64,000 nt of DNA from Candidatus Dormiibacterota bacterium (GCA_963743835.1 CAVUQX010000005.1:347959-411958), one strand, 5' to 3'. Shown: positions 4,232 to 19,425, numbered from the stretch's first letter. Program-made: numbers and translations. Notes: a model not told the origin generated them from the letters alone.

Positions 4232-4266
4232 GCCCCCTGTCTTAGGAACTCAGGCACCGTGGGGGC

Positions 4267-4710
4267 TCAGGCCCGGGCGATCGCGGCCGCGCAGGCGGAG
4301 CAGGTGCCGTAGAAGTCGAGGGCGTCGTGGTCCAGGGCGAACCCGTACCCACCCCTCACCGCGTCGATCAGCTGGTTGACCGCCGTGTCGTCGATCTCCG
4401 TGGTCGACCCGCAGAGGCGGCAGACCAGGTGGTGGTGATGGTTCTCCGCGCACGACGTGTAGACGTGAACGTGGCCCTCCGCCTCGAATCGCTGGGCGAG
4501 CCCGTTCTCGACGAGGAAGTCGAGCGTCCGAAACACGGTTGCGCGGCCGAGGAGCGGGTTCTCAGCACGCAGCGAGTTGTAGAGCTCCTGTGCGCTGACC
4601 GTTCTGCGTGCGCGAGCCAGGGCGCTCGCCACGATCATCCGCTGCAGGGTCAGCCGGTGTCCCTGAGCGGCGAGACGGTCCTTGACGGTGGGCGGTGCTG
4701 CTGCCGGCAC
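4267..4710 (-). CDS. Fur-family metalloregulator (Fur/Zur-like)
   Basis: Fur-like layout with the HHHHLVC..C and C-terminal CxxC motifs (CAENHHHHLVCRLCG..GTCSAC). Confidence 0.8.
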   Translation of the reverse strand: MPAAAPPTVKDRLAAQGHRLTLQRMIVASALARARRTVSAQELYNSLRAENPLLGRATVFRTLDFLVENGLAQRFEAEGHVHVYTSCAENHHHHLVCRLCGSTTEIDDTAVNQLIDAVRGGYGFALDHDALDFYGTCSACAAAIARA

Positions 4711-4714
4711 CGGT

Positions 4715-5794
4715 CTAGGCCGCCCGCTTCAGCCAGCGCTCGGGATGCCGGAGCTCGTCGAGGGTGGGCATCATCTCCGCGGACTCCCAGACTCGATTCA
4801 GCGCGCTGAGCCCGGCGCGATCAACGACGCCGACCGCGAAGTGCTCGCCGACCTCGTACTGGCGCATCTTCATCTCCAGGCCGGTGATGGTGAGCACCAG
4901 CCGCTCGATCGGCCTTCGCTGATGGCGGCGCTGCTGCATGGCCGCCTCGAGCCGGTCGGAGCCGCGAATCGCCTCGCGGCCGGCGCGATGCATGACGAAG
5001 TTGCTGTACCCCTCGAGAACGCTCATCACGGCCTGCACGTGGCGGATCGTCTGCACCTGATTTCGCACCGTGTCGGGCAGCCGGCGAACCATCTGGCTCG
5101 AGGGAAGGAGTGTCTGGCCGTCAGCCGAGAGCGCGTCGAGCATCAATCCGCGCATCACGCTCTCGAGATGCTCGCCGAGCCACGGATGGACCTCGAACTG
5201 CCAGGCATGGGTCAGCTCGTGGAGGATCAGCCAGGGCCGCAGGTCGGTACCGCTGAGATGCAGGTCGCGCTCGATCCCGGCGATGTTGGGCTCGACGAGG
5301 TAGAGGGCGCTCGCCTGACGGGTGTCTCCCGGGACCTCCTCCAGCGCGAGAACCGGGTCGTACTGGCCGAGGACCCGGCGTGCCATCAAGCCGAACAGCT
5401 CGCCGACGTAGCGGTCGAGCACGCGCCGGCTCATGCCGGTCGCCAGCGATTCGGGGACGCTCGCCCGGATGCGCTCGACGGGGGCGAGCAGCCGCTGCAC
5501 CATGCCGAGGTTGGCGTCGATGAAGCCCTTCCGATCGAGGGCGACGAATCGCGGATACGCGGTCAGCGGTACCTGGCAGACCTCGACCAGCAGGGGCGCG
5601 ACCTGCGCCGCCATCTCGGTATAGGCCGCCTCGAGCGCCTCCGCGTTGATACCGGCAGCGCTCCGGAGCTCGCCGCTGCGCGACACGGCGATGCGGCGCA
5701 CGTCATCCCAGTCGACCAGGCGGCGCGGCGTCTGCAGCTGGGGGCGGAGCAGGGCTCGCGCCGACAGCACCGCGCCCGCGCCGACGGCTCCCAC
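4715..5794 (-). CDS. zinc-dependent metalloprotease (DUF2342/F420-associated family)
   Basis: HEXXH motif HELTHAWQ; length and layout typical of the actinobacterial 'zinc-dependent metalloprotease' family. Confidence 0.6.
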   Translation of the reverse strand: MGAVGAGAVLSARALLRPQLQTPRRLVDWDDVRRIAVSRSGELRSAAGINAEALEAAYTEMAAQVAPLLVEVCQVPLTAYPRFVALDRKGFIDANLGMVQRLLAPVERIRASVPESLATGMSRRVLDRYVGELFGLMARRVLGQYDPVLALEEVPGDTRQASALYLVEPNIAGIERDLHLSGTDLRPWLILHELTHAWQFEVHPWLGEHLESVMRGLMLDALSADGQTLLPSSQMVRRLPDTVRNQVQTIRHVQAVMSVLEGYSNFVMHRAGREAIRGSDRLEAAMQQRRHQRRPIERLVLTITGLEMKMRQYEVGEHFAVGVVDRAGLSALNRVWESAEMMPTLDELRHPERWLKRAA

Positions 5795-5878
5795 GGCGAG
5801 CGTGCGGCGGATCTTGTCGCTTCGACTGGCAGGAACTCATGGATCGATCATACGGGGGGACCGCCCGCCGATCGGAAT

Positions 5879-6727
5879 CTACATCGACGACCCCGACCGC
5901 CCGTCGATGTAGACCGGGTGCTCGGGGGGCTTGCCCTCGAGCCAGTAGGCGTCGAGGCGCTCGTCGGTCCAGCCCCGCTCGCGGAGGAACGGCTCGTCGA
6001 GGATCTGCTGTCCGGTGAGCGCCGGCGGTTGGGTGGTGACGATCTCCATCATGGCGTCGCAGAGGATCTCCGGCGATCGCCACTGGCTGCGGTCTCCGAG
6101 GCCCCAGTTGATGCTCGCCAGGCTTTCGATGATGGTCACGGGCCAGAGCGAGTTGCTCGCGATCCCGTCATCAGCGTGCTCGGCTGCGATCCCGATCGCC
6201 AGCCGGGTCATCCCCATCTTGGTGGTCATGTAGGCGACGTGCCCAGGGCTCGGCGTGGTCGTGATCGGCGGCGAGCAGGTGATGACGTGGCCCCAGTGAT
6301 TCGTCACCATGTGCGGCAGCGCGTAGTACGCGCAGAGAAATGCCGCGCGAACGTTGATCTCCCACATCAGGTCGTAGCGCTTCGGCGGGGTGTCCAGGAC
6401 CGGCTGCCACCAGAGCGCGCCCGCGTTGTTGATGAGGATGTCAAGTCGGCCGAAGCGCTCGACGGTGGCATCGACCATCGCTTTGACCTCATCCTCGTGG
6501 CGCACGTCCACCCGTACGGCGAGCGCGGACCCGCCGGCTGCCTCGACCTCTGCCGCGACCGTGTGGATGCTCCCGGGAAGCTTGTCGGTACCGCTCTCCG
6601 ACTTGCCCGTGACGACCACCGACGCGCCCTCGCGAGCGAGGCGCAGCACCATGGCACGCCCGATTCCCCGGCTGGATCCTGTGACCACCGCCACGCGGCC
6701 GTCAAGCGGACGATGTGGCGCGCTCAT
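5879..6727 (-). CDS. SDR-family oxidoreductase (HSDL2-like)
   Basis: VAVVTGSSRGIGRA NAD(P)-binding motif, NNAG, and YxxxK region (HVAYMTTK). Confidence 0.75.
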   Translation of the reverse strand: MSAPHRPLDGRVAVVTGSSRGIGRAMVLRLAREGASVVVTGKSESGTDKLPGSIHTVAAEVEAAGGSALAVRVDVRHEDEVKAMVDATVERFGRLDILINNAGALWWQPVLDTPPKRYDLMWEINVRAAFLCAYYALPHMVTNHWGHVITCSPPITTTPSPGHVAYMTTKMGMTRLAIGIAAEHADDGIASNSLWPVTIIESLASINWGLGDRSQWRSPEILCDAMMEIVTTQPPALTGQQILDEPFLRERGWTDERLDAYWLEGKPPEHPVYIDGRSGSSM

Positions 6728-6775
6728 CGGCGCGCATCATAGGCGCCGCCGCGGTAACCGCACCTCGATCGCGGA

Positions 6776-7470
6776 TCAGGCGACGCGAGCGGCGATCTCC
6801 TTGACGAGGTTCGCGAGCTCGTCGGTGAGCGGTCCCGGCAGGCGGCGCTGGAGTATCTCGAGCACGCTCGTGTAGTACCAGAGCTGGGCGTGGGGATCAG
6901 TCACGGTGAATCGCTGCCACACGGCGTCGCCGTCGGTGCGGAGGTCGGTCACGATGGACCGCGCGTTGTGGACCTTGTCGCAGGCGGAGACGAGCAGGAC
7001 ATCGCTGTCGGCCTCGACGGCGAGTCGCCGCAGATACGTTTCCTTCCGCTCCCGCCATTCCGGCTTCGGCTTCCCGGGTATCGCGACGGCATCGCTGCAG
7101 GCCATGACGATCCGCGCGACCCGGTCCCCGAACTGCTCGTCGATCACCTGGTGGGTCGCCTCGCCGTCCTCCGAATCCTCCACCGCGTCGTGGAGCAGTG
7201 CGGCGATGGCCAGGTCCTCATCGGCGCCGTTCTCCAGGGCCAGCGCGCAGACCGTCATGACGTGAGCCATGTACGGGACGCCGGTTTTCTTGCGCATCTG
7301 CGTCCCGTGGACCGCCCAGGCCAGTGCGAACGCCGCGGCGAACCGACCGGTCAGCGGTGGCGCGGTCTGGGTCCGCTCGGGCACCAGCACATTGTGGGCA
7401 ATGCTCGCCTGCGAACGAAGCACGGCGGGCATGGGAGCCAGAATGGCGCGGTGCGCTTCTCTCTCGGCCA
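6776..7470 (-). CDS. HD-domain phosphohydrolase (RelA/SpoT-hydrolase-like)
   Basis: H..HD motif (AALLHDAVEDS), HGTQMRK; start chosen at MAEREAH because the longer ORF upstream is R/D-rich low-complexity. Confidence 0.65.
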
Positions 7471-7531
7471 TCGACTGCCCGGCGGATTCTGGGGAGGCGT
7501 CTCCACCTACACGCGCCGGCCCCAACATGCG

Positions 7532-7984
7532 GTGCGTCAAGCTGTCCGCGCGACGGGCGCTATCGGCTGCGTGGGCTTCATCGTCCTGCTCGCCGTCCTC
7601 GCGCTCAGCATCACCTACTGGTACATCAGTGTCCCGGTGCTGGGGCTGACGGCCGTCGCGGTCGGCATCACCGTGCATCGCCAGCACGTCAACCGCGCGC
7701 CGGGATCGGTGGTTGCTCCTTTCCCGGCAATGGGTCCGGTCGCGACCACGAGGCCGGTCATCGCCGCACCCCCAGCGCCGGCGCCCGCGCAGTCGCCACC
7801 CCGCGACCCGCGTATCGCGAGCACCCCGCCTTTGACCATGCCCGCCGACACGTTCAAGGTCGGCTCGCTGGTCCACCTCGAGAAGAACGGGAGGCGCGCC
7901 ACGTACTTCGTCGATCACGGACGGACGCCGGACGAGATCGTGCTCAAGCGCGTTTCCGGCACGCCGCCGGCCCCTGATGCCTGA
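7532..7984 (+). CDS. small membrane protein (2 predicted TM helices plus a C-terminal ~45-aa beta-rich domain); first gene of the putative defence module
   Basis: GTG start 61 nt from the divergent HD gene; hydrophobic stretches IGCVGFIVLLAVLALSITYWYI and VLGLTAVAVGITV; C-terminal FKVGSLVHLEKNGRRATYFVDHGRTPDEIVLKRV. Its stop overlaps the ATG of the downstream ATPase by 8 nt. Confidence 0.5.
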   Translation: MRQAVRATGAIGCVGFIVLLAVLALSITYWYISVPVLGLTAVAVGITVHRQHVNRAPGSVVAPFPAMGPVATTRPVIAAPPAPAPAQSPPRDPRIASTPPLTMPADTFKVGSLVHLEKNGRRATYFVDHGRTPDEIVLKRVSGTPPAPDA

Positions 7985-10406
7985 CGCCGCTCTGCTCGGC
8001 CTGGTGGTCGATCGGATCGAGACCCATGCCCCGGCCGACGGTGCGGCGGACCTGATCCTGGCGGCATTTCAGGGGCCGGGTGCTGTCGATGCCGCACTTC
8101 GCGGCGAGGCCTCTGGGGCGCTGACGCCGGTCGCGCAGAGCGTCGCAGCGCCTGCGGCGGTGTACCTCGCCGCGATCGAGGTGGAAGGCTTCCGTGGCAT
8201 CGGCCCGCCAACCACCCTGCACATCGATCCCGGACCCGGCCTCACCCTCGTGGTCGGACGGAACGGCTCGGGGAAGTCGTCGTTCTCGGAAGCGCTCGAG
8301 ATGGTCCTGCTCGGCAGCAATCAGCGTTGGGAGCAGCGCGTCAAGGTCTGGCGTGACGGATGGCAGAACCTCCATCACCGCCATTCGCGGGTGGCGGCGC
8401 AGTTCGCCGTCGACGGACGCCGGCAGCCGCTCCATGTCGGCCGTGTCTGGAAGGATGGCGATGGTGTCGACGGCTCGACATTGATCGTCGATGGCAAGCC
8501 GGCATCAGCGGCCTCCCTCGGATGGGCGCCGCAACTGGCGGGGTATCCGCCGCTGCTCTCGCACAACGAGCTTGAGCACGCGCTCGATCGCGAGCAGTCG
8601 AAGTTATACGACGCACTCGCCGGCATCCTCGGGCTCGGTGATCTCGCCGCTGCGCAGCAGGTGCTGCAGCGGGCTCGGCTGAGCCGGGAGCACGATGCCA
8701 AGGAAGCTCGCGACGCGCTCCCCGCGCTGCGGGGACTCCTCGACCGAACCTCCGACGAACGTGCGGCGGTGGTTCGCGTCGCCCTGTCATCGAAGACGTG
8801 GGACCTCGACGTTGTCGCGAGCACGGTCGGCGGTGAAGCGCAGAGCGGCGAGCGCAGCGTGTTGCGCAAGCTTCGCGACCTCGCGGGTCTGCCGGTGCTC
8901 GACCGTGAGCGGCTCAACGCCGTGACCACCGAGCTGCGTGAGGCTCATGCTGCGACCGACCGACTGCGCGGTACCGACGCGGGAAGGGCGCACGAGGTGG
9001 CATCGCTGCTCCAGCAGGCGCTCGACGTGCACGCACACGCCGAGGGTGAACGCTGCCCGGTGTGTGGCACTGAGGGTGTGTTGACGTACCAGTGGCGCGT
9101 CCAGGCGCGCGACGAGGTGCTGCGGCTTCGAGCGGATGCGGAGGCGGTGCGCAAAGCGCGTGACATGCTGGGTGACGCGATACGCCAGGCTCGGCAGCTG
9201 GTCACCGCACCGCTCAAAACGCTCCGCGACAGTGCTGGCGCGGGCGTCGACGTTGCGCCGGTGATCGCCCTCTGGGAGCGATGGGCCGACGTTGCTGCCG
9301 ATGATGACGCAATCGCACTGGCCGGCCATCTCGAGACACAAGGCGCGCCGCTCATCGCAGCAGTGGCGGATCTGCGCCGGGCAGCATCGGCGGAGCTCGA
9401 GCGATTGGAGCGAGCCTGGCGACCGGCGGCGGAAGCGATCGCCCTCTGGCTGCCCCTGGGACGGAGGACGCTGGAGGCCGACCGCGAGGCCGGCCGCCTC
9501 CGGGAGGCGGAACGCTGGCTCAAGGATGCGCACGACGAGCTGCGTGATGAGCGGTTCCGTCCGATCGCGGGAGCTGTGCAGGAGAACTGGACCGCACTCC
9601 GTCAGGACAGCAACGTGTCGCTCGGCGATCTGCGCCTGCTCGGCGCGTCGAATCAGCGGCGGCTTGCGCTCGATGTCAAGGTCGACGGCGAGGACGGCTC
9701 GGCGCTTGGCGTCATGAGCCAGGGGGAGCTGAACTGCCTCGCGCTGTCGCTCTTCCTGCCGCGTGCCTCGATGCCGGAGTTGCCCTTTCGTTTTGTCGTG
9801 ATTGACGACCCGGTGCAGGCAATGGATCCTGCCAAGGTTGCGGGGCTCGCCACGGTGCTCGCGCGCGCTGCGAGAGACCGCCAGGTCATCGTGCTCACGC
9901 ACGACACGCGTCTTGCGGACGCCATGAGCGCGCTGGACATCAACGCCACGGTGATCGAGGTGGTGCGGCGCGAGCAGTCGATCGTGGAGCTGCGACGCAT
10001 TCAGGACCCGGTGCAGCGGTATATCGAAGATGCCTTTGCGGTCGCGATGAGCAGGGACGTGCCGGAGGAGGCGCTGCGCGTGATCCCAGGCTTCTGCAGG
10101 CTCGCGCTCGAAGCCGCCGCGTCACTCGCTGCGACGAGGCGACTGCTCCACCATGGCAGGACGTATGCGGACGTCCAGGATGTGCTTGCGCAGCCGACCA
10201 CGCTCAACATGTGGCTCGCGCTGGCGTTGCTGAACGATCCCGAGCGCAGCGGTGACGTCGCAGGGTTCCTGCAGAAGCAGTACCCCTGGGCGGTCGAGGC
10301 CGTCAGGGAATGCAACCGCGGAACGCACAGCGGCAAGCTGTTCGGCGACGCGAAGGAGTTCATTCGCAGCATCGAGCAGCTGACGAAGAGGATCCTCGAC
10401 CGTTGA
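7977..10406 (+). CDS. RloC/PrrC-like ABC ATPase with coiled-coil zinc hook and C-terminal HEPN-like domain (candidate anticodon nuclease / abortive-infection protein)
   Basis: Walker A GRNGSGKSS at ~aa 95; long helical insert with CPVCG (CxxC) at ~aa 360; ABC signature/Walker B/D-loop/H-loop SQGELNCLALSLF...FVVIDDPVQAMD...VLTHD at ~aa 590-640; ~170-aa helical C-terminal tail with Rx6H (VRECNRGTH). Confidence 0.6.
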   Translation: MPDAALLGLVVDRIETHAPADGAADLILAAFQGPGAVDAALRGEASGALTPVAQSVAAPAAVYLAAIEVEGFRGIGPPTTLHIDPGPGLTLVVGRNGSGKSSFSEALEMVLLGSNQRWEQRVKVWRDGWQNLHHRHSRVAAQFAVDGRRQPLHVGRVWKDGDGVDGSTLIVDGKPASAASLGWAPQLAGYPPLLSHNELEHALDREQSKLYDALAGILGLGDLAAAQQVLQRARLSREHDAKEARDALPALRGLLDRTSDERAAVVRVALSSKTWDLDVVASTVGGEAQSGERSVLRKLRDLAGLPVLDRERLNAVTTELREAHAATDRLRGTDAGRAHEVASLLQQALDVHAHAEGERCPVCGTEGVLTYQWRVQARDEVLRLRADAEAVRKARDMLGDAIRQARQLVTAPLKTLRDSAGAGVDVAPVIALWERWADVAADDDAIALAGHLETQGAPLIAAVADLRRAASAELERLERAWRPAAEAIALWLPLGRRTLEADREAGRLREAERWLKDAHDELRDERFRPIAGAVQENWTALRQDSNVSLGDLRLLGASNQRRLALDVKVDGEDGSALGVMSQGELNCLALSLFLPRASMPELPFRFVVIDDPVQAMDPAKVAGLATVLARAARDRQVIVLTHDTRLADAMSALDINATVIEVVRREQSIVELRRIQDPVQRYIEDAFAVAMSRDVPEEALRVIPGFCRLALEAAASLAATRRLLHHGRTYADVQDVLAQPTTLNMWLALALLNDPERSGDVAGFLQKQYPWAVEAVRECNRGTHSGKLFGDAKEFIRSIEQLTKRILDR

Positions 10407-10413
10407 GGTCGGC

Positions 10414-10803
10414 ATGACCACGAGGGTTGATGCGCACGCGCTGGTTTCGGCCGCACGCGACCTCATTCGCGACGACGACGCGGCGACGGCAGGCCTCTGG
10501 CCGCGAGCAGCCGCGTTGCTTGCCCGGCAGGGGCTGGAGCTCGCGATGGAGCGGCTCTGGGAGGTGACGGCCCCTGGCCTGGAGCGAACCTCAACGCGAT
10601 GTCAGCTGCTCTGTGTCGGCGATATGCTCAACGATCGCGAGCTCGGCGGCCGCGCGACGCTGACCTGGCGATCGCTCTCCAACGCGTGCCACCACCGCGT
10701 CTATGAGTTGCCACCGACCGCGAGCGAGCTCAACCTGGCGCTCGAGACCGTGTGGGACCTTGCCGAGTCGGTTGAGCGGCTGCGAGGGAAGATCCAGGGC
10801 TGA
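10414..10803 (+). CDS. standalone HEPN-like protein, paralogous to the C-terminal domain of the upstream ATPase
   Basis: GAGG RBS 6 nt upstream and an 8-nt gap after the ATPase stop; Rx6H motif (WRSLSNACHH); shared LND motif and similar spacing to the ATPase tail (LLCVGDMLNDRELGGRA vs LALALLNDPERSGDVA). Confidence 0.5.
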   Translation: MTTRVDAHALVSAARDLIRDDDAATAGLWPRAAALLARQGLELAMERLWEVTAPGLERTSTRCQLLCVGDMLNDRELGGRATLTWRSLSNACHHRVYELPPTASELNLALETVWDLAESVERLRGKIQG

Positions 10804-10814
10804 GCGCGTGGTTC

Positions 10815-10982
10815 TCAGGTCTTCGGAGCGTCGTTGCGCTGCTCGCCTGAACGCTCGAGGAGTTGTCGCAGGGCAGGAAGCACCACCCGGTCCTTCTCCC
10901 GATTGGCTGCCTCCTTTGCCTGCTCGTCGCGCAAGCGCAGGTCGAATCGCTCGCCATTCTGACCGCGGATCCGGTGTTTCAT
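10815..10982 (-). CDS. possible small ribbon-helix-helix-like protein (convergent with the HEPN gene)
   Basis: MKHRIRGQNGERFDLRLRDEQAKEAANREKDRVVLPALRQLLE resembles a CopG/RHH beta-strand plus helix; short, no further support. Confidence 0.25.
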   Translation of the reverse strand: MKHRIRGQNGERFDLRLRDEQAKEAANREKDRVVLPALRQLLERSGEQRNDAPKT

Positions 10983-11176
10983 CGCTACGACGTCGAGGTC
11001 GTCCCGGCCGGCTGACGTGCCGCCCTGCGAGCTGCGACTGGCACGTGTCGCAAACGCATGCCTCGTTGACAACGCTGCGGCAGCAGTCTCAGCACCCTCA
11101 CAGGGCGCACTGATGAACCTCAAATCACCCGCTGTCACTCTCTAACTTAGCCACCTAAGTAACGAGGAACCCGACC

Positions 11177-11938
11177 ATGGACGACCACAACCCAACCTGC
11201 CCACAAGAGTCCGCACCCGCTCGGGTTCGGCGTTACCTGACCCGCAAAACACGTCGAGGGATCATTGCGTTGACGTTGACGGGTGCCGCGGTGGTACTTG
11301 CCGCCTGCGGCACGGCTGCGGCGACAACCACTCCCTCGTCGGCGGCCGCGGGCAGCAACTCCCCGGCCGGCCCTTTCTCCGGCGGCGGAGGTTCGAACGC
11401 TCGGTCTGGACCGGCCGCAGGCGGATCATCCGGGACCGTCAGTGGCGTATCGGCGTCGAGCTTCACCGTTTCGACCGCAGCGGGTCAGAAGGTGACCGTT
11501 GACGAGGCGTCGTCGACCACCTATGAGAAGAACTCGGCCGCGACGTCGGCAAGTGCCATCACGACGGGAGAAGCGGTCCTGGTCCTGGGGACCACCAGTG
11601 GAACGACCATCGCCGCCACGGAGGTCGTTGTGCAATCGAGTGGCAGTTCAGCGGCTGCCTCTGCGGCTGCACGCGTCGTGCCGTTCCAGCAAGGGGCTGC
11701 CACCACGTCAAAGCAACTCGGTCAAATCCCTGCGGACTACAGCCAGGGGTCGGGGACGATCGTCAGCGGGACGACCGCATACAAGGCGACTGAAGCCGCG
11801 CTTGCGGCGTACCCCGGAGGCATCGTTGACCGTGTCGTGCAGCTGAGCAACGGCGAGTTCGAGGTGCATTACATCGGCGTCAACTGGCCGCATCACGTCT
11901 TCGTCAGCCAGGACTTCACGGTCGTCGGAGCCAACTAG
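11177..11938 (+). CDS. lipoprotein with repeated beta-rich (DUF5666-like) segments
   Basis: Signal peptide plus lipobox (LTGAAVVLAAC), Ser/Thr/Gly-rich linker, repeated G-T-V-S motifs; AT-richer upstream region. Confidence 0.6.
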   Translation: MDDHNPTCPQESAPARVRRYLTRKTRRGIIALTLTGAAVVLAACGTAAATTTPSSAAAGSNSPAGPFSGGGGSNARSGPAAGGSSGTVSGVSASSFTVSTAAGQKVTVDEASSTTYEKNSAATSASAITTGEAVLVLGTTSGTTIAATEVVVQSSGSSAAASAAARVVPFQQGAATTSKQLGQIPADYSQGSGTIVSGTTAYKATEAALAAYPGGIVDRVVQLSNGEFEVHYIGVNWPHHVFVSQDFTVVGAN

Positions 11939-12083
11939 AGACACGAAGGTGCGGAATGTGCTCGCCATTGATCGGGTTGCTCGTGGGCATATCCGCACGC
12001 GAGTAGGTGTACGGCAACCTGGCGCAAAGGGCGCCGTACGTGGCGCATCTCGCCGTCCAACTCAACGTCGTCCGTCTGTTGAT

Positions 12084-13298
12084 TCAGGGTGGCGGCTCGA
12101 CCACGGCAACGCCATCAGCGATATGGATGCGCCAGCCCTGCTCGTGCACTCGGCGGTGGTGGGTCCGGCACAACGAGACCAGATTCCCCAGCTCGGTGGG
12201 ACCGTCCGGCCAGTGGATGATGTGGTGCCCATCCGTCCACGCCGGCGGTCGATCGCACCCGGGAAACCGACAGCCCTGATCGCGCAGGTTGAGCGCGGTG
12301 CGGAGGTGGGCCGGGATGGTGCGCGTCTCCCGTCCGACCGCGAGCGGCAGGACCGGTGGGCGGCTGCCGGTCCACGCCGAACCACCCGCAGCCGGCGGCG
12401 CAACGGCCACCACCGTGAGCGCCGCATCACAGGCGATGCGCCGCGCGGTCTCGGGATGGATCGGTCCCACCCCGCGCAGCTCGGCCGGCCAGCCATCGGC
12501 GTCACCCCGGAGCGTGGCCGCGCTCACCGTGAGGGTGAGATGGGGGCGCTGGCCGTGGACATCGCGGTGGTCCCCGCAGCGCAGCTGGGTGGCGGCCAGC
12601 TCGACGAGCGCGTCGGCACGGCGCTGCGAGCCGGTTCGGGTCTCGTCATGGGTCATTCCCTGACTGAGCGCGTCGATGGCGGTCTTCACCAGCGCGCCCC
12701 CTTCGGCGTCGAGCTCCCCGCGAAGGACGAAGACCCCGCCATAGGTCTGCTCGCACTCGAACCAGCGCCGCTCATGGGCGCGGTTGTCGTCGGCGAGCAC
12801 CCCATCGGGATCGATCCGGAGCCGCGCCACCTGGGTGACGGTGCGCATGTCGCCGGGGTCGAGCGTCTCCGCCGCGCCCACCAGGATGTGCTCCAGCAGC
12901 GCCACCTGCGCCACGCCGACATCATTGGCGAGCTGGGCGATCATGGTCACGTTGCTCAGGGAGGCGCGCCCGGCACGGGCGCTGTCGAGCGTGGCCGGGA
13001 GCTCGCCGAGGGTGCGCGCCAGCCGGACGCGGGACGCGCCCGCCTTCCAGGTCACGGCGCAGTGATCGCGCACCCAGGAGGTGGTGCTGCCCGCCCCATC
13101 GGCCAGCGCGCCGTGGGCGCGATCGAAGCGGTCCAGGCGACGGAGGAACTCGGCCTCGAGGCGATCGGCAGCCCGCCGGATGGCGACCAGGTCGTCGCCC
13201 AGCGCCTGTGTGGAGAAGCCGTCGATGGACTCGCCGACGAGTGCATCGATTGCCTCCGTCAGCCGCTGTCGGGCATCCGGTATGGCGAACGCTTCCAT
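12084..13298 (-). CDS. DUF222 / HNH endonuclease-signature protein (mycobacterial 13E12-repeat family)
   Basis: C-terminal HNH motif GCRFPGCDRP...DGHHIIHWPDGPTELGNLVSLCRTHHRRVHE with an N-terminal DUF222-like helical region; start at MEAFAIPD. Confidence 0.8.
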   Translation of the reverse strand: MEAFAIPDARQRLTEAIDALVGESIDGFSTQALGDDLVAIRRAADRLEAEFLRRLDRFDRAHGALADGAGSTTSWVRDHCAVTWKAGASRVRLARTLGELPATLDSARAGRASLSNVTMIAQLANDVGVAQVALLEHILVGAAETLDPGDMRTVTQVARLRIDPDGVLADDNRAHERRWFECEQTYGGVFVLRGELDAEGGALVKTAIDALSQGMTHDETRTGSQRRADALVELAATQLRCGDHRDVHGQRPHLTLTVSAATLRGDADGWPAELRGVGPIHPETARRIACDAALTVVAVAPPAAGGSAWTGSRPPVLPLAVGRETRTIPAHLRTALNLRDQGCRFPGCDRPPAWTDGHHIIHWPDGPTELGNLVSLCRTHHRRVHEQGWRIHIADGVAVVEPPP

Positions 13299-13505
13299 AC
13301 AGAATATTATACCAAACACCTGTTCGCCACCGCACGGACAATGCGGTGCACTTGACTGGTTACAGCCATAGCTGGCAGTAACCGTTCGAGATCTCCGCGA
13401 CGACCGAGGTCCAACGTCCGGATCCGTTGGCGGGTGCCAACTCGACGAAACCCGGCAACGCCAGGGCCCCTCGACGCATGACGCAGTCAACCCCAGTCTG
13501 AGGGT

Positions 13506-14321
13506 CTATCTGTCGGGTCGATCCACGATCGGTACGAAGATCGCCTCGCGATGGTAGTCAAAGTTCATGAGGTCCAAATGATGCTGGCGCGCCATCAACA
13601 ACTGCTGCCCTTCCGTCGCTCGGTCGCCCGTAACGGACAGGCTTTCGGGCATGATCGTGATCGCCCCGAAATCGAACAGCACATGGTCATTCGGGCAAAG
13701 ACACAGGACGTTGTTCATTGCGTCCTTCCCGTTGTGAGGGCGTCCGAGTGGCCGAATGTGGGCGGCCTCAGCATACGGGGCTATCGGGGTGGGCAAGGAG
13801 ATCCGGCAGATTTGGCACGTGTAGTCATACATGCGCTTGACCTCCCGAGTGACGGCAGTGTCCCGAACGATCCGCTGAATCGTTTGGGCGACGCGCTCGG
13901 GGCGTCCCGGCTCGTCGCGTAGCACCAAGACCGCCGACGCGGGGACCTTGCGCAGTTCGTAGCGCCATCGAATGAAACCGTCGCTCGTATGGCGATCGCG
14001 GAAGTAGCTGTCCACCACGTAAACACCGTCATATCGGAAGCTCCGACCAACCTTACGAATGACCCGGACGGGCACGCCGAAATTACGGCTGCGAATCAGG
14101 CCCGCGTTTCCGAGGATCGGTTTCTGGTCGGCAACCGCTCTGGACGTTCCAGGGTCGAGGCCTCCCTGGCCGGTATAGATGACTACGTCCCCTTGATCGT
14201 CATCCGGATAGACACCGGACAAGACGACCGACGCCGCCGGCTGTCCCGCGGCGAAATCTATGCCAGCTTGGAGAGGCCGATGGATGCCGGCGTCTCGGAG
14301 CCCTCGGCGGCTCGGGAACAT
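13506..14321 (-). CDS. SRA(YDG)-HNH methylation-dependent (type IV) restriction endonuclease
   Basis: SRA-domain motifs GVYPDDDQGDVVIYTGQGG and FRYDGVYVV; C-terminal HNH HIRPLGRPHNGKDAMNNVLCLCPNDH; GC ~53-55% against ~70-75% flanking. Confidence 0.75.
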   Translation of the reverse strand: MFPSRRGLRDAGIHRPLQAGIDFAAGQPAASVVLSGVYPDDDQGDVVIYTGQGGLDPGTSRAVADQKPILGNAGLIRSRNFGVPVRVIRKVGRSFRYDGVYVVDSYFRDRHTSDGFIRWRYELRKVPASAVLVLRDEPGRPERVAQTIQRIVRDTAVTREVKRMYDYTCQICRISLPTPIAPYAEAAHIRPLGRPHNGKDAMNNVLCLCPNDHVLFDFGAITIMPESLSVTGDRATEGQQLLMARQHHLDLMNFDYHREAIFVPIVDRPDR

Positions 14322-14451
14322 TGAGCCGACGGGCACCTCAGGCACTTCTCCGTACCTGATAACGGATGGCGTCACGGTGACCTGATGGTACGTGTCCCGC
14401 CGGCCTCCAATCAGAACTAGACATGGGAGGCACTCGGGCCCGCCCAGGCTC

Positions 14452-14501
14452 TTAGCACTCGCGGCCCCCACCCGCTAGCAGTCAGACCCCCCGAGTGCTA
14501 A
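14452..14501 (+). promoter_or_regulatory. CIRCE-like HrcA operator(s) upstream of groEL, atypical arrangement
   Basis: Perfect half-sites TTAGCACTC (14452-14460) and GAGTGCTAA (14493-14501) are separated by 32 nt rather than 9. The internal degenerate halves (aCCcGCTAg, cTAGCAgTC) could make two overlapping N9 CIRCEs. Confidence 0.55.
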
Positions 14502-14546
14502 ACTAGCCCCTGGAACCAAGGCTAGAGGATCAAACCAGGAGGAACC

Positions 14547-16158
14547 ATGGCCAAGCAATTGCTGTTCGACGTCGAGGCCCGCGCCCATCTCAAACGAGGG
14601 GTTGATCGGGTAGCTGACGCCGTGAAGATCACCATCGGCCCCAAGGGCCGGAACGTCGTGCTGGACAAGAAGTTCGGCTCGCCGACCATCACCAACGACG
14701 GAGTCACGATCGCCAAGGAGATCGAGCTCGAGGAGCCCTTCGAGAACATGGGCGCCCAGCTGGTCAAGGAAGTGGCGAGCAAGACCAACGACATCGCTGG
14801 TGACGGGACCACCACCGCCACCGTCCTCGCCCAGGCGCTCATCGCGGCCGGGTTGCAGAACGTCGCTGCCGGCGCCAACCCGATCCAGCTCAAGAAGGGC
14901 ATCGAGCTCGGCGTTGAGGCGATCGTCAAGGCGATCAAGGAGCAGTCGATCCCGATCTCCGAGCGCGAGAAGATCGCCCAGGTCGCGTCGATCTCCGCTG
15001 CTGACCCCACCATCGGCGAGACCGTCGCCGACGCGATGGAGAAGGTCGGCAAGGACGGCGTCATCACCGTCGAGGAGTCGAAGGGCCTCGAGACCGAGCT
15101 CGAGCTCGTCGAGGGCATGCAGTTCGACAAGGGCTACATCTCCGCGTACATGGTCACCAATGCCCAGCGCATGGAGGCCGTGCTCGAGGATCCCTACATC
15201 CTCATCACCGACAAGAAGATCTCGGCGATCGCGGACCTGCTCCCGATCCTCGAGAAGGTCGTCCAGAGTGGCAAGCCGCTGCTGGTGATCGCCGAGGACG
15301 TCGAGGGAGAGGCGCTGGCCACCCTCATCGTCAACAAGCTGCGCGGCACCTTCAACGCCGTCGCGGTCAAGGCGCCGGGGTTCGGTGATCGTCGCAAGGC
15401 GATGCTCCAGGACATCGCGATCCTGACCGGCGGCCAGGTGATCAGCGAGGAGGTCGGCCTCAAGCTCGACTCCGCGCAACTCAGCTCGCTGGGCCGCGCC
15501 CGCAGCGTGACCATCACCAAGGACGACACCACGATCGTCGAGGGCAACGGCAGCAAGGACGCGATCAAGGGCCGGATCGAGCAGATCAAGGCCGAGATCG
15601 AGAAGTCCACCAGCGACTGGGACAAGGAGAAGCTCCAGGAGCGCCTCGCCAAGCTCAGCGGTGGCGTTGCGGTGATCAAGGTCGGCGCGGCGACCGAGAC
15701 CGAGCTCAAGGAGAAGAAGCACCGCATGGAGGACGCCGTGTCCGCCACGCGCGCCGCAGTCGAGGAGGGCATCGTGCCCGGTGGTGGAGTGGTGCTCGTC
15801 AACGCGATCCCCGCGCTCGACAAGGTGAAGGTCGAGGGCGACGTGCTCACCGGCGTGAACATCCTCCGCCGTGCGCTCGAGGAGCCCCTTCGTCAGATCG
15901 CGCAGAACGCCGGGATGGAAGGCTCCGTGGTCGTTGACAAGGTCAAGTCCCTGCCCAAGGGTCAGGGCTTTCGACGCCGCCAAGGGCGAATACGTGGACA
16001 TGGTCAAGGCCGGGATCATCGACCCGACCAAGGTGACCCGATCGGCGGTTCAGAACGCGGCATCGATCGCCGCGCTGCTGCTCACCACCGAGGCGCTGAT
16101 CACCGACATCCCCGAGAAGAAGGGAGCACCGGCCGGTCCGCCGATGCCGGAGTACTGA
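14547..16158 (+). CDS. groEL: chaperonin GroEL (60 kDa), with an apparent +1 frameshift (extra T near 15969-15971)
   Basis: Canonical GroEL from [12 protein letters not shown] to ...[11 protein letters not shown]; the C-terminus ([45 protein letters not shown]...) continues in frame +1 (ORF 15871..16158). Confidence 0.9.
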
Positions 16159-16183
16159 TCGGCAACTGATCCGATTCCTTGGA

Positions 16184-16222
16184 AAGGGCGGTCCGGGTTT
16201 CCCGGGCCGCTCTTTTCTTTGT
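16184..16222 (+). terminator. rho-independent terminator after groEL
   Basis: GC stem gcggtccggg/TTT/cccgggccgc followed by the tcttttcttt T-tract. Confidence 0.6.
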
Positions 16223-16356
16223 CTGTCGCTGTGGCTGTTCGGTGACGCGGCGATGACTCGATCAACGATCGGCTACAACCTGGCGACACCGGAATCCGAA
16301 TGCTCAGCGGCTGCTTAGATTCGAGCGTCAAATTCCGCGTCTTGAGAGGTAATTCA

Positions 16357-16899
16357 ATGGGCGACGCGCAGCCAGACCACTCCCCGGCCCACGCAGTCGG
16401 ATCCGCATTCCTGCACGTCACCGGGATTGGGAGCCGCATCGCCAAACGAGAGGCCGACGAGGAGCAGCTCGACGCGCTCGACGGCAAGCTGCTCACCGAC
16501 CTCGACCGTGAGTTTCACGAGCGCGGCGAGGAAGCCGTGCCGGATCTCGACCTGACGTCGGTCACGACAGTCGACCCCGCGTTCACGCCGGATGCGTTCC
16601 TGCTGATCGCGAGGGACACGTTTCGCGTTCTGCAGGATTCGCACACCGCCGGCGCCCCCGCCCTCGACGCTGACATCGCATCAGCGGAGGTCACGGCCGC
16701 CGCGGTCGTGTCTGGTCGCGAACGAGTTGTCGTCCGTTTCGGGATCATTGGCGCGACCTCGATCAGCCAGGACTGGACCTTCGAGCGCGATCCGTCGGTC
16801 GATACGAGCGCTGACGATGAGGACCATGAGGTGGCCGACGGCGGATGGCTTGTGGCGCATCGTGGATGGCGTCTGACAGGGATCGCCGCCGCCGCCTGA
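16357..16899 (+). CDS. hypothetical protein (possibly Tim44-like/NTF2-fold)
   Basis: ORF with an acidic N-terminal half; no recognisable catalytic motifs. Confidence 0.4.
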   Translation: MGDAQPDHSPAHAVGSAFLHVTGIGSRIAKREADEEQLDALDGKLLTDLDREFHERGEEAVPDLDLTSVTTVDPAFTPDAFLLIARDTFRVLQDSHTAGAPALDADIASAEVTAAAVVSGRERVVVRFGIIGATSISQDWTFERDPSVDTSADDEDHEVADGGWLVAHRGWRLTGIAAAA

Positions 16900-16911
16900 G
16901 CGCACGTCGGG

Positions 16912-17307
16912 TCAGGAGCAGGCGGTGGCGCGGTAGGCGGCGTTGCCCAGGGCGGGCGCGAGCCTGCCCGTGAGGGTGATCGTCGCGTCGCGACCCGGGG
17001 GCGTGCACCCTTGAGGAAAGACCACGAACACGCTCCGGGCGCCGGCGGAGATGTACCCGTCGCAGGTCGTGTGGTTGCACACGTACGGCTCGAAGCTTCC
17101 CGAGAGGGTCGCGGTTCCATCCGAGTTGACCGATCTCACCGGGTTGCCGAAGAGCCCGGTGAACCCCACGACGAAGAGCACCACGATCACGACCACGGCG
17201 ATCACCACCACCGGCACGCCCCAGAACGGGCGCCGGCGCCCGACCGCCGGCTCATCGGTGACGGCACCAACCGATGCCTGCTCGGGGGCGCTCGGCGGAT
17301 TGTCCAT
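16912..17307 (-). CDS. small membrane-anchored Cys-containing protein
   Basis: One TM helix (VPVVVIAVVVIVVLFVVGF), 4 Cys in the ectodomain; start at MDNPPSAP. Confidence 0.4.
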   Translation of the reverse strand: MDNPPSAPEQASVGAVTDEPAVGRRRPFWGVPVVVIAVVVIVVLFVVGFTGLFGNPVRSVNSDGTATLSGSFEPYVCNHTTCDGYISAGARSVFVVFPQGCTPPGRDATITLTGRLAPALGNAAYRATACS

Positions 17308-17334
17308 GGCACTGGTACGGTACCGAAGTCCGCC

Positions 17335-18105
17335 ATGCGGCAGCCGATTGTCTTCGTCACCGACTACGGGCGCGACGACGCATACGCGGCGGCGCTGATC
17401 GGTGCTGTCTGGAACGTCGACGCCGCTGCTGTGTGCGTCGAGGGCACGCACGGGATCCCGCCCGGCGATGTGCTCGCCGGCGCCTACCAGTTGAAAGCCC
17501 TCGCCCGCGCGTTCACCGGCGGGGTGGTCTTCTGCGCGGTGGTCGACCCCGGCGTCGGCACCGACCGGCGAGCCATCGCCATCGAAGCCGGTGACGTCAG
17601 GTGCGTCGGCCCGGACAACGGGCTGGTGTCCTACCTCTGGGAGGAGGCTGCGCCGGCGGACCGCCGAGCAGTGCGTGTGGATGTCGCGTCCGGCGCCTCA
17701 CCCACGTTTCACGGCCGGGACGTCTTCGCGCCCTTCGCCGCGGTGCTCGCATCGCGGGAGCAGTTCGACGGCCAGCGCGCTCTCATCGACGACCCGGTCG
17801 TCCTGCGTGAAGCGTTTGCCCGGCGCGGTGGCGACCGCGTCACCGGGCGGGTCGCGGTGGTCGATCACTTCGGCAACGCCATCACCACCATTCGGGCCGC
17901 GGACCTCGATGGCGCCGAGGTCGGTTCGGTGACCTGGCCGGGGGGCGGATGCGCCGGTCTCGTCACCAGCTATGCCGACATCGACGGTGGCCCCGGAGCG
18001 CTGATCGGGAGCGCCGGCCACCTCGAGGTCGCAGGACGGGGCATCGCGGCGATTGCGGTTGGCGGCCCGCGCCTGGGCGACACCGTGGAGGTGCAGCTCG
18101 CGTGA
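17335..18105 (+). CDS. SAM hydroxide adenosyltransferase (DUF62, fluorinase/chlorinase-like)
   Basis: N-terminal IVFVTDYG..DAY and C-terminal DHFGN motifs typical of DUF62. Confidence 0.7.
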   Translation: MRQPIVFVTDYGRDDAYAAALIGAVWNVDAAAVCVEGTHGIPPGDVLAGAYQLKALARAFTGGVVFCAVVDPGVGTDRRAIAIEAGDVRCVGPDNGLVSYLWEEAAPADRRAVRVDVASGASPTFHGRDVFAPFAAVLASREQFDGQRALIDDPVVLREAFARRGGDRVTGRVAVVDHFGNAITTIRAADLDGAEVGSVTWPGGGCAGLVTSYADIDGGPGALIGSAGHLEVAGRGIAAIAVGGPRLGDTVEVQLA

Positions 18106-18833
18106 CGGCGAGCGGGCGCGAGACATTTGGCGATCTCACCTCCGAGCAGGTGGCCCAACTCGATGCAGCGGCCGCGGACGCCGGGGTGTCGACTCTGCAA
18201 CTCATGGAGATCGCCGGGTGGCAGGTCGCGCGCTGCGCCTGGGGCCACGTCGGCCGTACCGCGCGCGTAGGTGTTGTCGCCGGGTATGGCAACAACGGCG
18301 GCGACGGGCTGGTTGCGGCACGGCACCTTGCGACCTGGGGATGTGCGGTACGGGTGCTCGTCCTTGCCGCCGAGGCGCAGGTGTCAGGTGTGGTGCTGGA
18401 CCACGTCATATCGGCGCGCAGGTGCGGCGTCGACGTCCTCGTGAGCGCGGATCCCGACGCGGTACCCGGAGTCACCGTTGAGGCCGATCTTGTCATTGAC
18501 GCGATCCTCGGCACGGGGTTGCGCAGCGCGCCGCGCGACCCCCAGGCGAGCGGAATACGGGCCATCAACGCGTCGGGGGTCTCCGTCCTCAGCGTCGATG
18601 TCCCGAGCGGCCTCGATGCCACCACCGGCGAGGCCTTCGACCCCACGGTTCGTGCCGCGCTCACCTGCACGCTCACCGCGATGAAGCGGGGTTTGCGGCG
18701 CGGCGACGCCGCCACGCACGCAGGCGCGGTGTGGATTGCCGACATCGGGATGCCCAGAGCGGCATGGCACCGGGCGGGGCTCCACCGACCATCGGGTGTC
18801 ACTGGCGGGGAGTTGGTGCACACTTCGTCCTGA
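18102..18833 (+). CDS. NAD(P)H-hydrate epimerase (YjeF N-terminal domain)
   Basis: GxGNNGGDGLV motif (GYGNNGGDGLVAARHL); GTG start overlaps the upstream stop (GTGA). Confidence 0.7.
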   Translation: MTASGRETFGDLTSEQVAQLDAAAADAGVSTLQLMEIAGWQVARCAWGHVGRTARVGVVAGYGNNGGDGLVAARHLATWGCAVRVLVLAAEAQVSGVVLDHVISARRCGVDVLVSADPDAVPGVTVEADLVIDAILGTGLRSAPRDPQASGIRAINASGVSVLSVDVPSGLDATTGEAFDPTVRAALTCTLTAMKRGLRRGDAATHAGAVWIADIGMPRAAWHRAGLHRPSGVTGGELVHTSS

Positions 18834-18902
18834 TCTCCCCTTGACCGCAGAGGGGAGTCCCGGCTATTCTTCGACCGTACTCCGCGCCCACAGCGCAAAC
18901 GT

Positions 18903-19425
18903 CATGATCAACGTCTCAGCACACATCGTCCCCGAGGCGCGCGAGCTTGCCGCAACCGCACGCGAGCAGCTCGATGATCTAGTCACGTATGCGACGCATC
19001 TGGTCAATCACCAGGCCGACGCCGTGGCCTTCGTCGCCGGGGGGATCCATCACGCGAGCCGCTACCCGCCCGCGCGCCTTCGCGTCGATGGCCGTGCGGC
19101 GCTCTACCGCGCCGTGACCAGGGCCTGCCGGCACGGGCAGCGATTCCCACCGCGGCCGCAGGGCATCGGCAGGATGTTCCGGCGCGGCGCCGGACCCATT
19201 CGTGTCGAGGTCGAAGAAGGCAACGCCGGTCGCATCAATACCGTCAAGCGCGCTCTCGCGATGCTGGGCTTCGACCGCAGAGCGGCTCTGCTCCTTCGTG
19301 ACCTCTGTGGACTCGACTATCACGAGATGTCTCGTGCGCTCGAGTGCTCACCTGAGGCTGCGGCGCGGCTGGTGGCGGCGGCCCGCCGCGAATTCGGTTC
19401 CATCTATCGAGAGATCGCCATATGA
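18903..19425 (+). CDS. ECF-type sigma factor-like protein (region 4 clear, region 2 divergent)
   Basis: Sigma-70 region-4 HTH LLRDLCGLDYHEMSRALECSPEAAARLVAAARREF; stop overlaps the start of the anti-sigma gene (ATGA). Confidence 0.5.

Follow-up and report, generated by a model that had tools for sequence, protein, structure and literature searches.

A probable mosaic accessory segment upstream of groEL in Candidatus Dormibacterota carries a TagI-like SRA-HNH nuclease gene and a DUF222-HNH element

Upstream of groEL, positions 10806-14450 of the 64,000-nucleotide stretch of DNA analysed here (the window) very probably form a mosaic accessory segment in a recombination-prone slot, made up of four independently varying modules. 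The slot would lie between a lineage-conserved operon encoding an SMC/Rad50-like ATPase and the groEL promoter. Its modules would be the scar of a PhD/PIN toxin-antitoxin pair and a DUF6036 nucleotidyltransferase gene, a lipoprotein gene, a DUF222-HNH selfish element of 1.3 kb whose own promoter is probably leaderless, and a single-gene cassette of ~1.07 kb encoding a TagI-like SRA-HNH protein. An earlier note on this DNA had mentioned actinobacteria in connection with the 13E12 family. The host is Candidatus Dormibacterota; its GroEL is 99% identical to that of a Candidatus Dormiibacterota MAG, and the next matches all belong to Dormibacterota. The features are as follows, with their evidence in brackets.

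7977-10406, plus strand: SMC/Rad50-like ABC ATPase gene, 809 aa, left-hand slot boundary (Pfam SMC_N, 62 bits)
10414-10803, plus strand: 129-aa partner gene of the ATPase (conserved in relatives)
10806-14450, no strand: variable accessory segment, from the ATPase/small-protein operon to the groEL promoter region (blastn against L009)
10815-10919, minus strand: remnant, last 35 codons of a DUF6036 nucleotidyltransferase gene (tblastn with the L002 protein)
10920-11006, plus strand: remnant, last 29 codons of a PIN (VapC-like) toxin gene (tblastn with the L002 PIN protein)
11177-11938, plus strand: accessory lipoprotein gene, 253 aa (lipobox; weak DUF5666)
12084-13382, minus strand: probable DUF222-HNH selfish element, 1.3 kb (DNA homology to the L089 copy; upstream motif conservation)
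12084-13298, minus strand: DUF222-HNH gene, 404 aa, ATG start (Pfam; homologue length)
13306-13316, minus strand: putative extended -10 box of the element (6-7 nt before the ATG)
13331-13343, minus strand: conserved box upstream of the DUF222-HNH gene
13358-13383: palindrome GGTTACTGCCAGCTATGGCTGTAACC upstream of the DUF222-HNH gene
13506-14375, minus strand: predicted SRA-HNH type IV modification-dependent restriction endonuclease gene, 289 aa, GTG start (Pfam; TagI match; residues)
14451-14546, plus strand: conserved groEL upstream region, right-hand slot boundary (homology resumption in L009 and L092)

Horizontal acquisition, which the earlier note had read from low GC, is supported chiefly by comparative genomics and not by GC. 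In blastn searches against the closest reference genome (L009), the aligned parts of the window were only 3949-10805 and 14451-19944. The flanks of the segment are 81-84% identical at the nucleotide level, and L009 replaces the segment itself by 3.2 kb encoding a 424-aa protein, a YbjN-like protein, an ArsR regulator and a SnoaL protein. The relative L092, with flanks at ~91% nucleotide identity, retains the DUF222-HNH unit and lacks the lipoprotein and SRA-HNH genes; 368 bp of unrelated DNA stand where the SRA-HNH cassette (~13370-14447) would be, and homology resumes at 14448. In L125 the groEL-proximal position is taken by another HNH_2 nuclease, with an uncharacterised N-domain of ~180 aa. 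The empty site that the earlier note had suggested looking for is seen in the more distant relatives L012, L013 and L014, where groEL has a Zincin_2 (metalloprotease) gene (window 4715-5794) as its immediate, divergently oriented neighbour; in L010 a single gene intervenes. No copy of the SRA-HNH gene occurs at the groEL locus in L009, L125 or L010-L014. The span singled out in the earlier note (10815-14321) nearly equals the segment that varies between genomes.

The SRA-HNH gene was assigned as a type IV enzyme in the earlier note, and this assignment held. The ORF at 13506-14471 (minus strand, 321 aa) matches Pfam SAD_SRA (PF02182; E = 7e-36, 123.7 bits against a cut-off of 30.7, residues 39-177) and HNH_2 (PF13391; E = 1.3e-10, 41.4 bits against a cut-off of 21). 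All homologues are ~289 aa long, so the true gene is shorter than the ORF and its GTG start was placed at 14375. A phmmer search of the PDB aligned the protein over its full length with TagI (6ghs_A; E = 1.6e-53, query 40-311 to chain 7-302, 42% identity). The YDG-type pocket, the VIYTGQGG motif and the Cys pairs of the HNH domain that had been reported are all present in the translation. In ORF numbering, the pocket residues Y88, Y99, D91 and Q68 correspond to TagI Y55, Y67, D58 and Q35 and are kept in nearly all of 11 homologues. The Cys4 zinc site (C219, C222, C257, C259) corresponds to TagI C210, C213, C248 and C250, and H238, N254, H263, D250 and D267 correspond to TagI H229, N245, H254, D241 and D258. 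All of these TagI positions, and likewise H288, are conserved in the protein and the 11 homologues; the roles of the pocket, zinc and catalytic residues are taken from PMC6212794. Three TagI positions are altered family-wide (H33P, Q226E, N259F). Since the TagI variant N259A was reported to be nearly inactive (PMC6212794), details of the dimer interface may differ from TagI. Purifying selection acts on the gene (dN/dS = 0.09 against L090).

These features support, from sequence, a TagI/ScoA3IV-type modification-dependent (type IV) endonuclease. Like TagI (PDB 6GHS), ScoA3IV (Sco5333) and TbiR51I, the protein has an N-terminal SRA domain followed by a C-terminal HNH_2 domain, is of similar size (289 aa, compared with ~300 aa), and shares the Y/D/Y pocket, thumb Gln, Cys4 zinc site and H-N-H plus Asp metal ligands. 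No methyltransferase gene adjoins it in the window, and it may be solitary as in that family. The characterised enzymes come from Actinobacteria, whereas the protein described here belongs to Dormibacterota and to a distinct subclade. A motif scan of the 64-kb window found no C5-methyltransferase motif (PCQxFS/ENV) in any real frame, and no methyltransferase gene adjoins the SRA-HNH gene in L090, L003 or L007. PADLOC matched the protein to a generic HNH only. A phosphorothioate-dependent (SBD) reading was rejected; the NCBIfam model matched at 44 bits against a cut-off of 180, over the HNH part only. If it works as TagI, ScoA3IV and TbiR51I do, the protein would dimerise via its HNH domains, and each SRA domain would flip 5-methyl- or 5-hydroxymethyl-cytosine into a pocket with tyrosine walls Y56 and Y67 and aspartate D59 as reader (289-aa numbering). 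A zinc-stabilised beta-beta-alpha-Me HNH site (H206, N222, H231, D235) would then nick or cut DNA some distance away. The outcome would be restriction of phages and plasmids with modified cytosines, in a host that lacks such modification; modification dependence, cleavage and a defence role are thus predicted from the characterised enzymes.

The composition of the SRA-HNH gene is unusual to a lesser degree than first described. Its GC content is 61.3-61.8% (GC3 72%) and not 53-55%, and the flanking genes are at 65-70% and not 70-75%, in a window of 67.7% GC. The dip is real, as this gene ranks lowest in GC among 59 predicted genes (mean 67.8, sd 2.3, z ~ -2.6; for GC3, z ~ -1.9) and windows of 966 bp that are as GC-poor fall at the 0.6th percentile of the 64 kb; its size is ~6 points rather than 15-20. 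The variable segment as a whole is at 65.9% GC, compared with 67.7% for the remaining window. Orthologues in other hosts also lie 4-7 points below their own flanks, so the deficit is in part a property of the gene family. On its own, such a modest deficit neither proves nor dates transfer.

The shared deficit would also suit a long-standing Dormibacterota gene, passed on vertically, which some relatives lost and whose low GC is its family composition. Such a history would further fit a 66%-identical copy in another Dormibacteria MAG (L007), and the three congeners that carry the gene at the same locus with divergence resembling that of their flanks. We consider it unlikely, because beyond the ~91% cluster the gene sits in unrelated neighbourhoods (homologues of 66-72% identity, L003-L007), an Acidobacteriaceae MAG homologue (65%) is as similar as the Dormibacteria one (66%), and the locus has no copy in L009, L125 and L010-L014. 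Moreover, L092 has unrelated replacement DNA there and not a simple deletion scar. The nearest relatives of the protein are from uncultured peat and soil bacteria (63-95% identity), and the exact protein is seen only on contigs of ~1 kb. The earlier note held that relatives with the same genes at this locus would speak against transfer; among the genomes compared, these are only congeners ~91-93% identical in DNA (L090, L002), and the equally close L092 and all more distant relatives lack the SRA-HNH gene. It had also raised a contig misjoin, and a chimeric assembly at the groEL locus would account for both the composition dip and the gene content. A probable single-base assembly error in groEL of the window and the break in the L091 assembly right after the 129-aa gene are compatible with this. 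Yet the same gene order and junctions recur in independent assemblies from different samples, namely L090 (a 3.57-Mb contig), L002 and L001, the last a short-read contig, 99% identical, that spans the DUF222 5' end, the SRA-HNH gene and the groEL start. We therefore treat a misjoin as having a negligible chance. Horizontal acquisition by the slot thus remains the reading that we prefer.

The DUF222-HNH gene behaves as a separate unit. All of its homologues are ~404 aa, so the ORF at 12084-13490 (minus strand; Pfam DUF222, PF02720, E = 1.7e-30, 106.9 bits; HNH, PF01844, E = 8.3e-05, 23.1 bits) was corrected to 12084-13298. The gene is intact (dN/dS = 0.15), with a complete C..C...HH..H...N...C..HH...H motif in its translation. 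A copy in an unrelated locus (L089) shows 91% DNA homology over exactly 12084-13382, ending at the stop codon, and L092 carries the unit with different flanks. Across 38 metagenomic copies the upstream motifs are conserved, with a consensus of the palindrome GTTAYTGCC-N5-6-GGCNRTAAC and a TGnTAyAAT box 6-7 nt before the ATG; the other boundary is the stop codon. The metagenomic copies were retrieved by a protein-based scan, and an exact DNA pattern from the promoter region had no match in JGI metagenomes. A scan for sigma-70 promoters and terminators over 10700-14700 found nothing. More than 120 protein clusters at 74-100% identity represent the family (exact look-ups of the 100%- and 98%-identical proteins, P0121 and P0122, gave no record), and the flanks of the metagenomic copies (79 loci) fall into many unrelated groups. 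The window itself holds a single copy, and ENA contig_52 bears two (L089 and L090). From these data, the unit is a multi-copy, probably selfish element with its own promoter-like region and probably leaderless expression, and the repetitive, mobile 13E12-type character that the earlier note ascribed to it is borne out.

REP13E12 of Mycobacterium tuberculosis and other actinobacteria likewise encodes DUF222 followed by a C-terminal HNH, is similar in unit size (~1.3 kb here) and has copies dispersed in one genome. The mycobacterial repeat is reportedly ~1.4 kb long. The element described here belongs to the same protein family in a different phylum, Dormibacterota; its unit boundaries are resolved, and no prophage attachment function is evident. 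The L089 and L090 copies on the same contig are 94.8% identical, a closer match than between syntenic orthologues, which suggests gene conversion in the manner reported for REP13E12 (PMC13061034). The biological function of REP13E12 and DUF222-HNH is still undefined in the literature.

In the window, L090 and L002 the two nuclease genes are co-directional neighbours with 123 bp between them, an arrangement that would suit one two-nuclease defence system with a sensor-nuclease and a helper nuclease, or the joint defence islet of the earlier note. Each gene is nevertheless found without the other elsewhere: DUF222-HNH occurs without SRA-HNH in L092 and L089, tblastn found SRA-HNH in 0 of the 79 metagenomic loci with a DUF222-HNH relative, with their many unrelated flanks, and SRA-HNH has no adjoining DUF222 in L003-L008. 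Together with the conserved promoter-like region that DUF222-HNH has for itself, this makes a joint system highly improbable, and we keep to two separate modules.

The left part of the segment records a loss. The first remnant is 86% identical to residues 141-175 of the intact DUF6036 protein of L002, and the second is 90% identical to residues 100-128 of the L002 PIN protein (both tblastn). L002 has 1.3 kb of extra DNA exactly at window position 10917, and the whole DUF6036 gene is kept in L002, L090 and L092. From this alignment, the two remnants are read as the scar of a deletion of ~1.3 kb that removed the PhD antitoxin, most of the PIN gene and most of the DUF6036 gene. A 107-aa ORF at 10815-11138 was rejected as a real gene, being a fusion of the two remnants. 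The earlier note had described the DNA upstream of the lipoprotein gene as AT-rich; it is mildly low in GC (63% over 10804-11176), but the stretch is the PIN/PhD/DUF6036 deletion scar. The lipoprotein has a signal peptide with an L-A-A-C lipobox and a Pfam DUF5666 match of 25.4 bits, below the cut-off. Its gene is present in L090 and L002, is absent from L092 and L009, and has no defence role.

The 809-aa ATPase bordering the slot is conserved in the lineage and lies outside the variable segment; it and the 129-aa gene are present in L009, L090, L091, L092 and L125. It matches Pfam SMC_N, AAA_23 and AAA_21, and its AlphaFold model (pLDDT 83) has SMC/Rad50 fold matches, with long antiparallel helices around the hook. 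CPVC 360-363, R708-x3-E712 and H784 are invariant in 45 homologues. The RloC-like label of the earlier note is plausible as an architectural resemblance only. As in RloC, a Rad50-like anticodon nuclease, a long coiled coil bearing the invariant CxxC (CPVC) hook interrupts the ABC/SMC head, and the length is similar (~805 aa). The all-helical C-terminal domain carries an invariant R-x3-E and a downstream invariant His that may correspond to the RloC triad; their Glu-to-His spacing of 71 is outside the published range (Arg-x3-Glu-x36-52-His). The match to Pfam AAA_13 (PF13166) is below the cut-off (29.2 bits against 36, residues 576-646 only), and unlike in RloC the gene is always followed by the conserved 129-aa gene. 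The best fold matches of the C-terminal domain are HEPN toxins and are not significant (E >= 0.35, TM <= 0.44). PADLOC gave partial matches to LmuB, mad3, GajA and HEC-01A via the ABC head.

The segment is not bordered by a tRNA, an integrase or any meaningful repeats, whether direct or inverted. Since recombinase and tRNA are absent, the modules were probably transferred by homologous recombination through the conserved flanks. A phage vector has no support, since viral contigs hold no relatives of either nuclease. Gain followed by loss and independent gains fit the absence of SRA-HNH from L092 equally well. The slot resembles defence islands and hotspots of integration in that its flanks are conserved and the cargo between them changes from genome to genome, including an SMC-like ATPase, a nucleotidyltransferase, a type IV nuclease and a toxin-antitoxin pair. 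It differs from them in its small size (3-7 kb), in lacking a recombinase or tRNA, and in also carrying non-defence genes (lipoprotein, ArsR, SnoaL, dehydrogenase); PADLOC recognised no complete defence system there.

As an instance of defence genes gained by horizontal transfer, the locus is genuine but rather unremarkable, and none of the SRA-HNH or DUF222 findings overturns current understanding. A bolder reading, which we regard as a long shot, is that the groEL-upstream position in this Dormibacterota clade serves specifically for the exchange of modification-dependent HNH_2 nucleases whose sensor domains are interchangeable (SRA in the window, the ~180-aa N-domain in L125), where DUF222-HNH genes would be autonomous homing-type genes (palindrome, leaderless promoter, nuclease) whose breaks and gene conversion drive cassette turnover. 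If true, REP13E12/DUF222, for long an enigmatic family, would gain a mechanistic role. The DUF222-HNH element provides a clean anatomical definition of a 13E12-type mobile unit outside the actinobacteria. With the SRA-HNH protein, the methylcytosine-dependent restriction enzymes, whose biochemistry is understood, would gain a member in Dormibacterota, a phylum that is uncultured and plentiful in soil and permafrost. These genomes appear to swap short defence cassettes at one particular slot next to an essential gene. The finding also suggests that selection in soil and permafrost habitats comes in part from phages or plasmids whose cytosines are modified.

The small variable slot beside groEL presents what we regard as a genuine case of a predicted type IV restriction gene that has been horizontally exchanged and that lies next to a selfish HNH element unrelated to it. 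The gene order in the 64-kb window, derived from the ORF list and Pfam, is:

4715-5794, minus strand, Zincin_2 metalloprotease
5879-6727, minus strand, short-chain dehydrogenase
6776-7918 (ORF), minus strand, HD_4 protein
7977-10406, plus strand, SMC/ABC-type ATPase of 809 aa
10414-10803, plus strand, 129-aa protein of no family
11177-11938, plus strand, lipoprotein (weak DUF5666)
12084-13490 (ORF), minus strand, DUF222 and HNH protein (Pfam)
13506-14471 (ORF), minus strand, SAD_SRA and HNH_2 protein (Pfam)
14547-16169, plus strand, groEL

Pfam thus bears out the domain content that the earlier note had read for the two nucleases. Based on comparison with homologues, both genes are shorter than their ORFs: the SRA-HNH gene encodes 289 aa from a GTG at 14375, and the DUF222-HNH gene 404 aa from an ATG at 13298. 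The HD_4 ORF (6776-7918, 380 aa) is over-extended, as gene calls in relatives give 204-298 aa and the Pfam match spans only residues 196-334. The groEL gene is frameshifted at 15961-15978 by an extra T at about 15969-15971 (GGGCTTTCGAC in the window versus GGGC-TTCGAC in the congeneric assembly L090 and in L009, the closest reference genome). Thus, its final ~70 codons are shifted to another frame (ORF 15871-16158); the shift is probably a homopolymer error of the assembly, not the mark of a pseudogene. With GroEL as the query against one genome per species, the best match was a Candidatus Dormiibacterota MAG (L009; 99% identity), followed by five Dormibacterota-type MAGs at 81-91% and all others at 72% or less; the idea of an actinobacterial host falls with this ranking.

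The alignment to L009 stops exactly at 10805/10806 and resumes at 14450/14451. Between these points L009 instead encodes a protein of 424 aa whose family is unknown, another with a YbjN-like chaperone fold, an ArsR regulator and a SnoaL protein. Four congeneric assemblies (L090, L002, L092 and L091) have flanks that are about 90-93% identical, and the slot contents are modular. L090 and L002 carry the full set (DUF6036, PhD, PIN, lipoprotein, DUF222-HNH and SRA-HNH), which the window shares minus the DUF6036/PhD/PIN block, lost in a 1.3-kb deletion; at the junction the final 35 codons of DUF6036 (10815-10919, minus strand) meet the final 29 of PIN (10920-11006, plus strand). L092 has DUF6036, PhD, part of PIN and the DUF222-HNH unit without the lipoprotein and SRA-HNH genes, and an unrelated 368 bp (68% GC) replaces window ~13370-14447. 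The L091 contig terminates directly after the 129-aa gene (contig end at 12880), as expected if assembly failed at a variable or repeated segment. In the more distant Dormibacterota L012, L013 and L014, groEL is directly adjoined by a divergent Zincin_2 gene, and in L010 one extra gene lies between. Thus, the whole 5.8-14.5 kb interval is sub-lineage-specific, and 10806-14450 is its most fluid portion. The gene for a ~424-aa protein without a known family is paired with one for a YbjN/TY-Chap3-like protein, and this pair adjoins the 129-aa gene both in L009 (6797-8490) and in the related genome L125 (5461-7410), neither of which has the SRA-HNH cassette; the pair is an alternative cargo module.

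Homologues of the SRA-HNH protein at 66-72% identity occur in wholly different neighbourhoods (L003-L008), and among the named sources of homologues are MAGs of Dormibacteria (66%) and Acidobacteriaceae (65%). A contig misjoin, which the earlier note had named as a possible refutation, is ruled out by assemblies made independently, one of them a short-read contig (L001) that is 99% identical across 13320-14602. The slot has neither a tRNA gene nor a recombinase, and no repeats bound it; the viral contigs searched contained no relatives of either nuclease. The simplest idea is that slot contents are exchanged by homologous recombination via the conserved flanks. Base composition had been offered as evidence of acquisition, and this holds qualitatively but not in its figures. 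The SRA-HNH gene was said to be 53-55% GC between genes of 70-75%; we measured 61.3-61.8% (GC3 72%) and 65-70%, respectively. Still, it has the lowest GC among the 59 predicted genes (GC 67.8 +/- 2.3; GC3 82.2 +/- 5.1), equally low windows of its length fall at the 0.6th percentile, and the whole window is 67.7% GC. Ahead of the lipoprotein gene, the sequence has 63% GC. SRA-HNH orthologues in three further genomic backgrounds likewise fall 4-7 points short of their flanks. Thus, the deficit is partly a family trait, and is insufficient alone to argue for horizontal transfer.

The SRA-HNH protein can be aligned from end to end with TagI, a restriction endonuclease of known crystal structure (6GHS; E 1.6e-53, 42% identity). 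We mapped functional residues from the TagI paper (PMC6212794) onto an alignment with 11 homologues. Conserved positions, in TagI numbering, are the thumb Gln35; the pocket residues Tyr55 and Tyr67, with the reader Asp58; the zinc cysteines 210, 213, 248 and 250; and His229, Asp241, Asn245, His254, Asp258 and His288. Among the mapped residues only H33P, Q226E and N259F differ from TagI, and these differences are subfamily-wide. PADLOC gives the protein a generic HNH match only, and an NCBIfam phosphorothioate-type model matches far under threshold, restricted to the HNH part. The dN/dS of 0.09 against the L090 orthologue indicates that the gene is maintained. Its dS (window 13506-14375 vs L090 16806-17675) is 0.45, about double that of flanking genes (0.19-0.25; groEL 0.10); possible causes are weaker codon bias and a recombination history of the cassette's own. 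TagI cuts 5mC or 5hmC DNA, not glucosyl-5hmC, and tolerates several sequence contexts, and Dcm+ E. coli is poisoned by ScoA3IV and TbiR51I (PMC6212794). By analogy, the best inference is that the protein would share the mechanism of TagI-type enzymes.

The DUF222-HNH gene is a selfish element separate from the SRA-HNH gene. A 93%-identical protein is encoded between tRNA-synthetase genes and relA on the 3.57-Mb contig of L090 (L089), and DNA homology between this locus and the window coincides exactly with 12084-13382, with the stop codon at one end and a point 84 bp ahead of the ATG at the other. L092 also has this unit in common with the window. The L089 and L090 copies match each other at 94.8% identity, more closely than either matches the syntenic counterparts in the window or L092 (90-91%), which fits gene conversion or recent duplication, as in the mycobacterial REP13E12 repeats, whose function is still termed undefined (PMC13061034). 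These habitats contain many members of the family (>120 clusters at 74-100% identity), and 38 metagenomic copies have a common upstream region, with a leader of ~90 bp (window 13299-13383, minus strand) that contains:

13358-13383, minus strand, palindrome GTTAYTGCC-N5-6-GGCNRTAAC
13331-13343, minus strand, CATTGTCCGTG box
13306-13316, minus strand, GCGAACAGRTGTTTGGTAyAAT (TGnTAyAAT), ending 6-7 nt before the ATG

From its sequence, the TGnTAyAAT motif looks like an extended -10 element of a leaderless transcript. Some copies (L094, L096, L097, L111 and L114 among them) form a subgroup with a further upstream stretch in common, GGATCCCGGCC...GACGTCGACC...CGCCCCGA; this may extend the element or mark a site that it prefers to target. 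A two-nuclease system of SRA-HNH and DUF222-HNH was considered and rejected: tblastn found SRA-HNH at 0 of the 79 DUF222-HNH metagenome loci, and the copies have flanks of many unrelated groups. Thus, the two nucleases are coincidental co-residents of a hotspot.

The 809-aa protein had been called RloC-like. RloC is defined by the motif Arg-x3-Glu-x36-52-His, a zinc hook of the CxxC type and a chain of 804 aa (PMC2610378). The head is SMC/Rad50-type (Pfam SMC_N 62 bits; fold matches), a long helical insert bears an invariant CPVC (360-363) at its tip, and the all-helical C-terminal domain has invariant R708-x3-E712 and H784. The likeness is real, but falls short on three points: the spacing is 71 residues rather than 36-52, Pfam AAA_13 is under threshold, and the best matches of the C-domain model (pLDDT 92), HEPN toxins, are non-significant (E >= 0.35). 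The ATPase and its 129-aa partner are present in all relatives examined (L009, L090-L092 and L125) and are widespread in Dormibacterota at 52-96% identity; they are the fixed left border of the slot, not mobile cargo. The ATPase is always followed by the conserved 129-aa gene, which matched no family. An ORF of 128-175 aa in L090 and L092 shares 8 nt with the start of the ATPase gene, and the window counterpart is a possible small ORF that ends at 7984 and includes a predicted membrane helix. These three genes may constitute an uncharacterised conflict system widespread in Dormibacterota. Of the compact defence islet proposed by the earlier note, the predicted type IV nuclease, toxin-antitoxin remnants and a possibly RloC-like ATPase stand, but the slot also holds non-defence cargo.

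In L125 the groEL-proximal position is occupied by a gene for a 307-aa protein (1357-2280, plus strand), divergent from groEL. Its C-terminal linker and HNH_2 resemble the SRA-HNH enzyme (26% identity, E 2e-07; PADLOC HNH 68.6 bits), and its ~180-aa N-terminal domain, which matched no family, may be a different modification sensor. The adjoining gene (2340-3824) encodes an ADP-ribosylglycohydrolase fused to a dual-specificity phosphatase domain. This different HNH_2 fusion and the clean definition of the DUF222-HNH unit are the most interesting by-products of the analysis, and the SRA-HNH enzyme itself adds a member, from a phylum that has been little studied, to a family already known.
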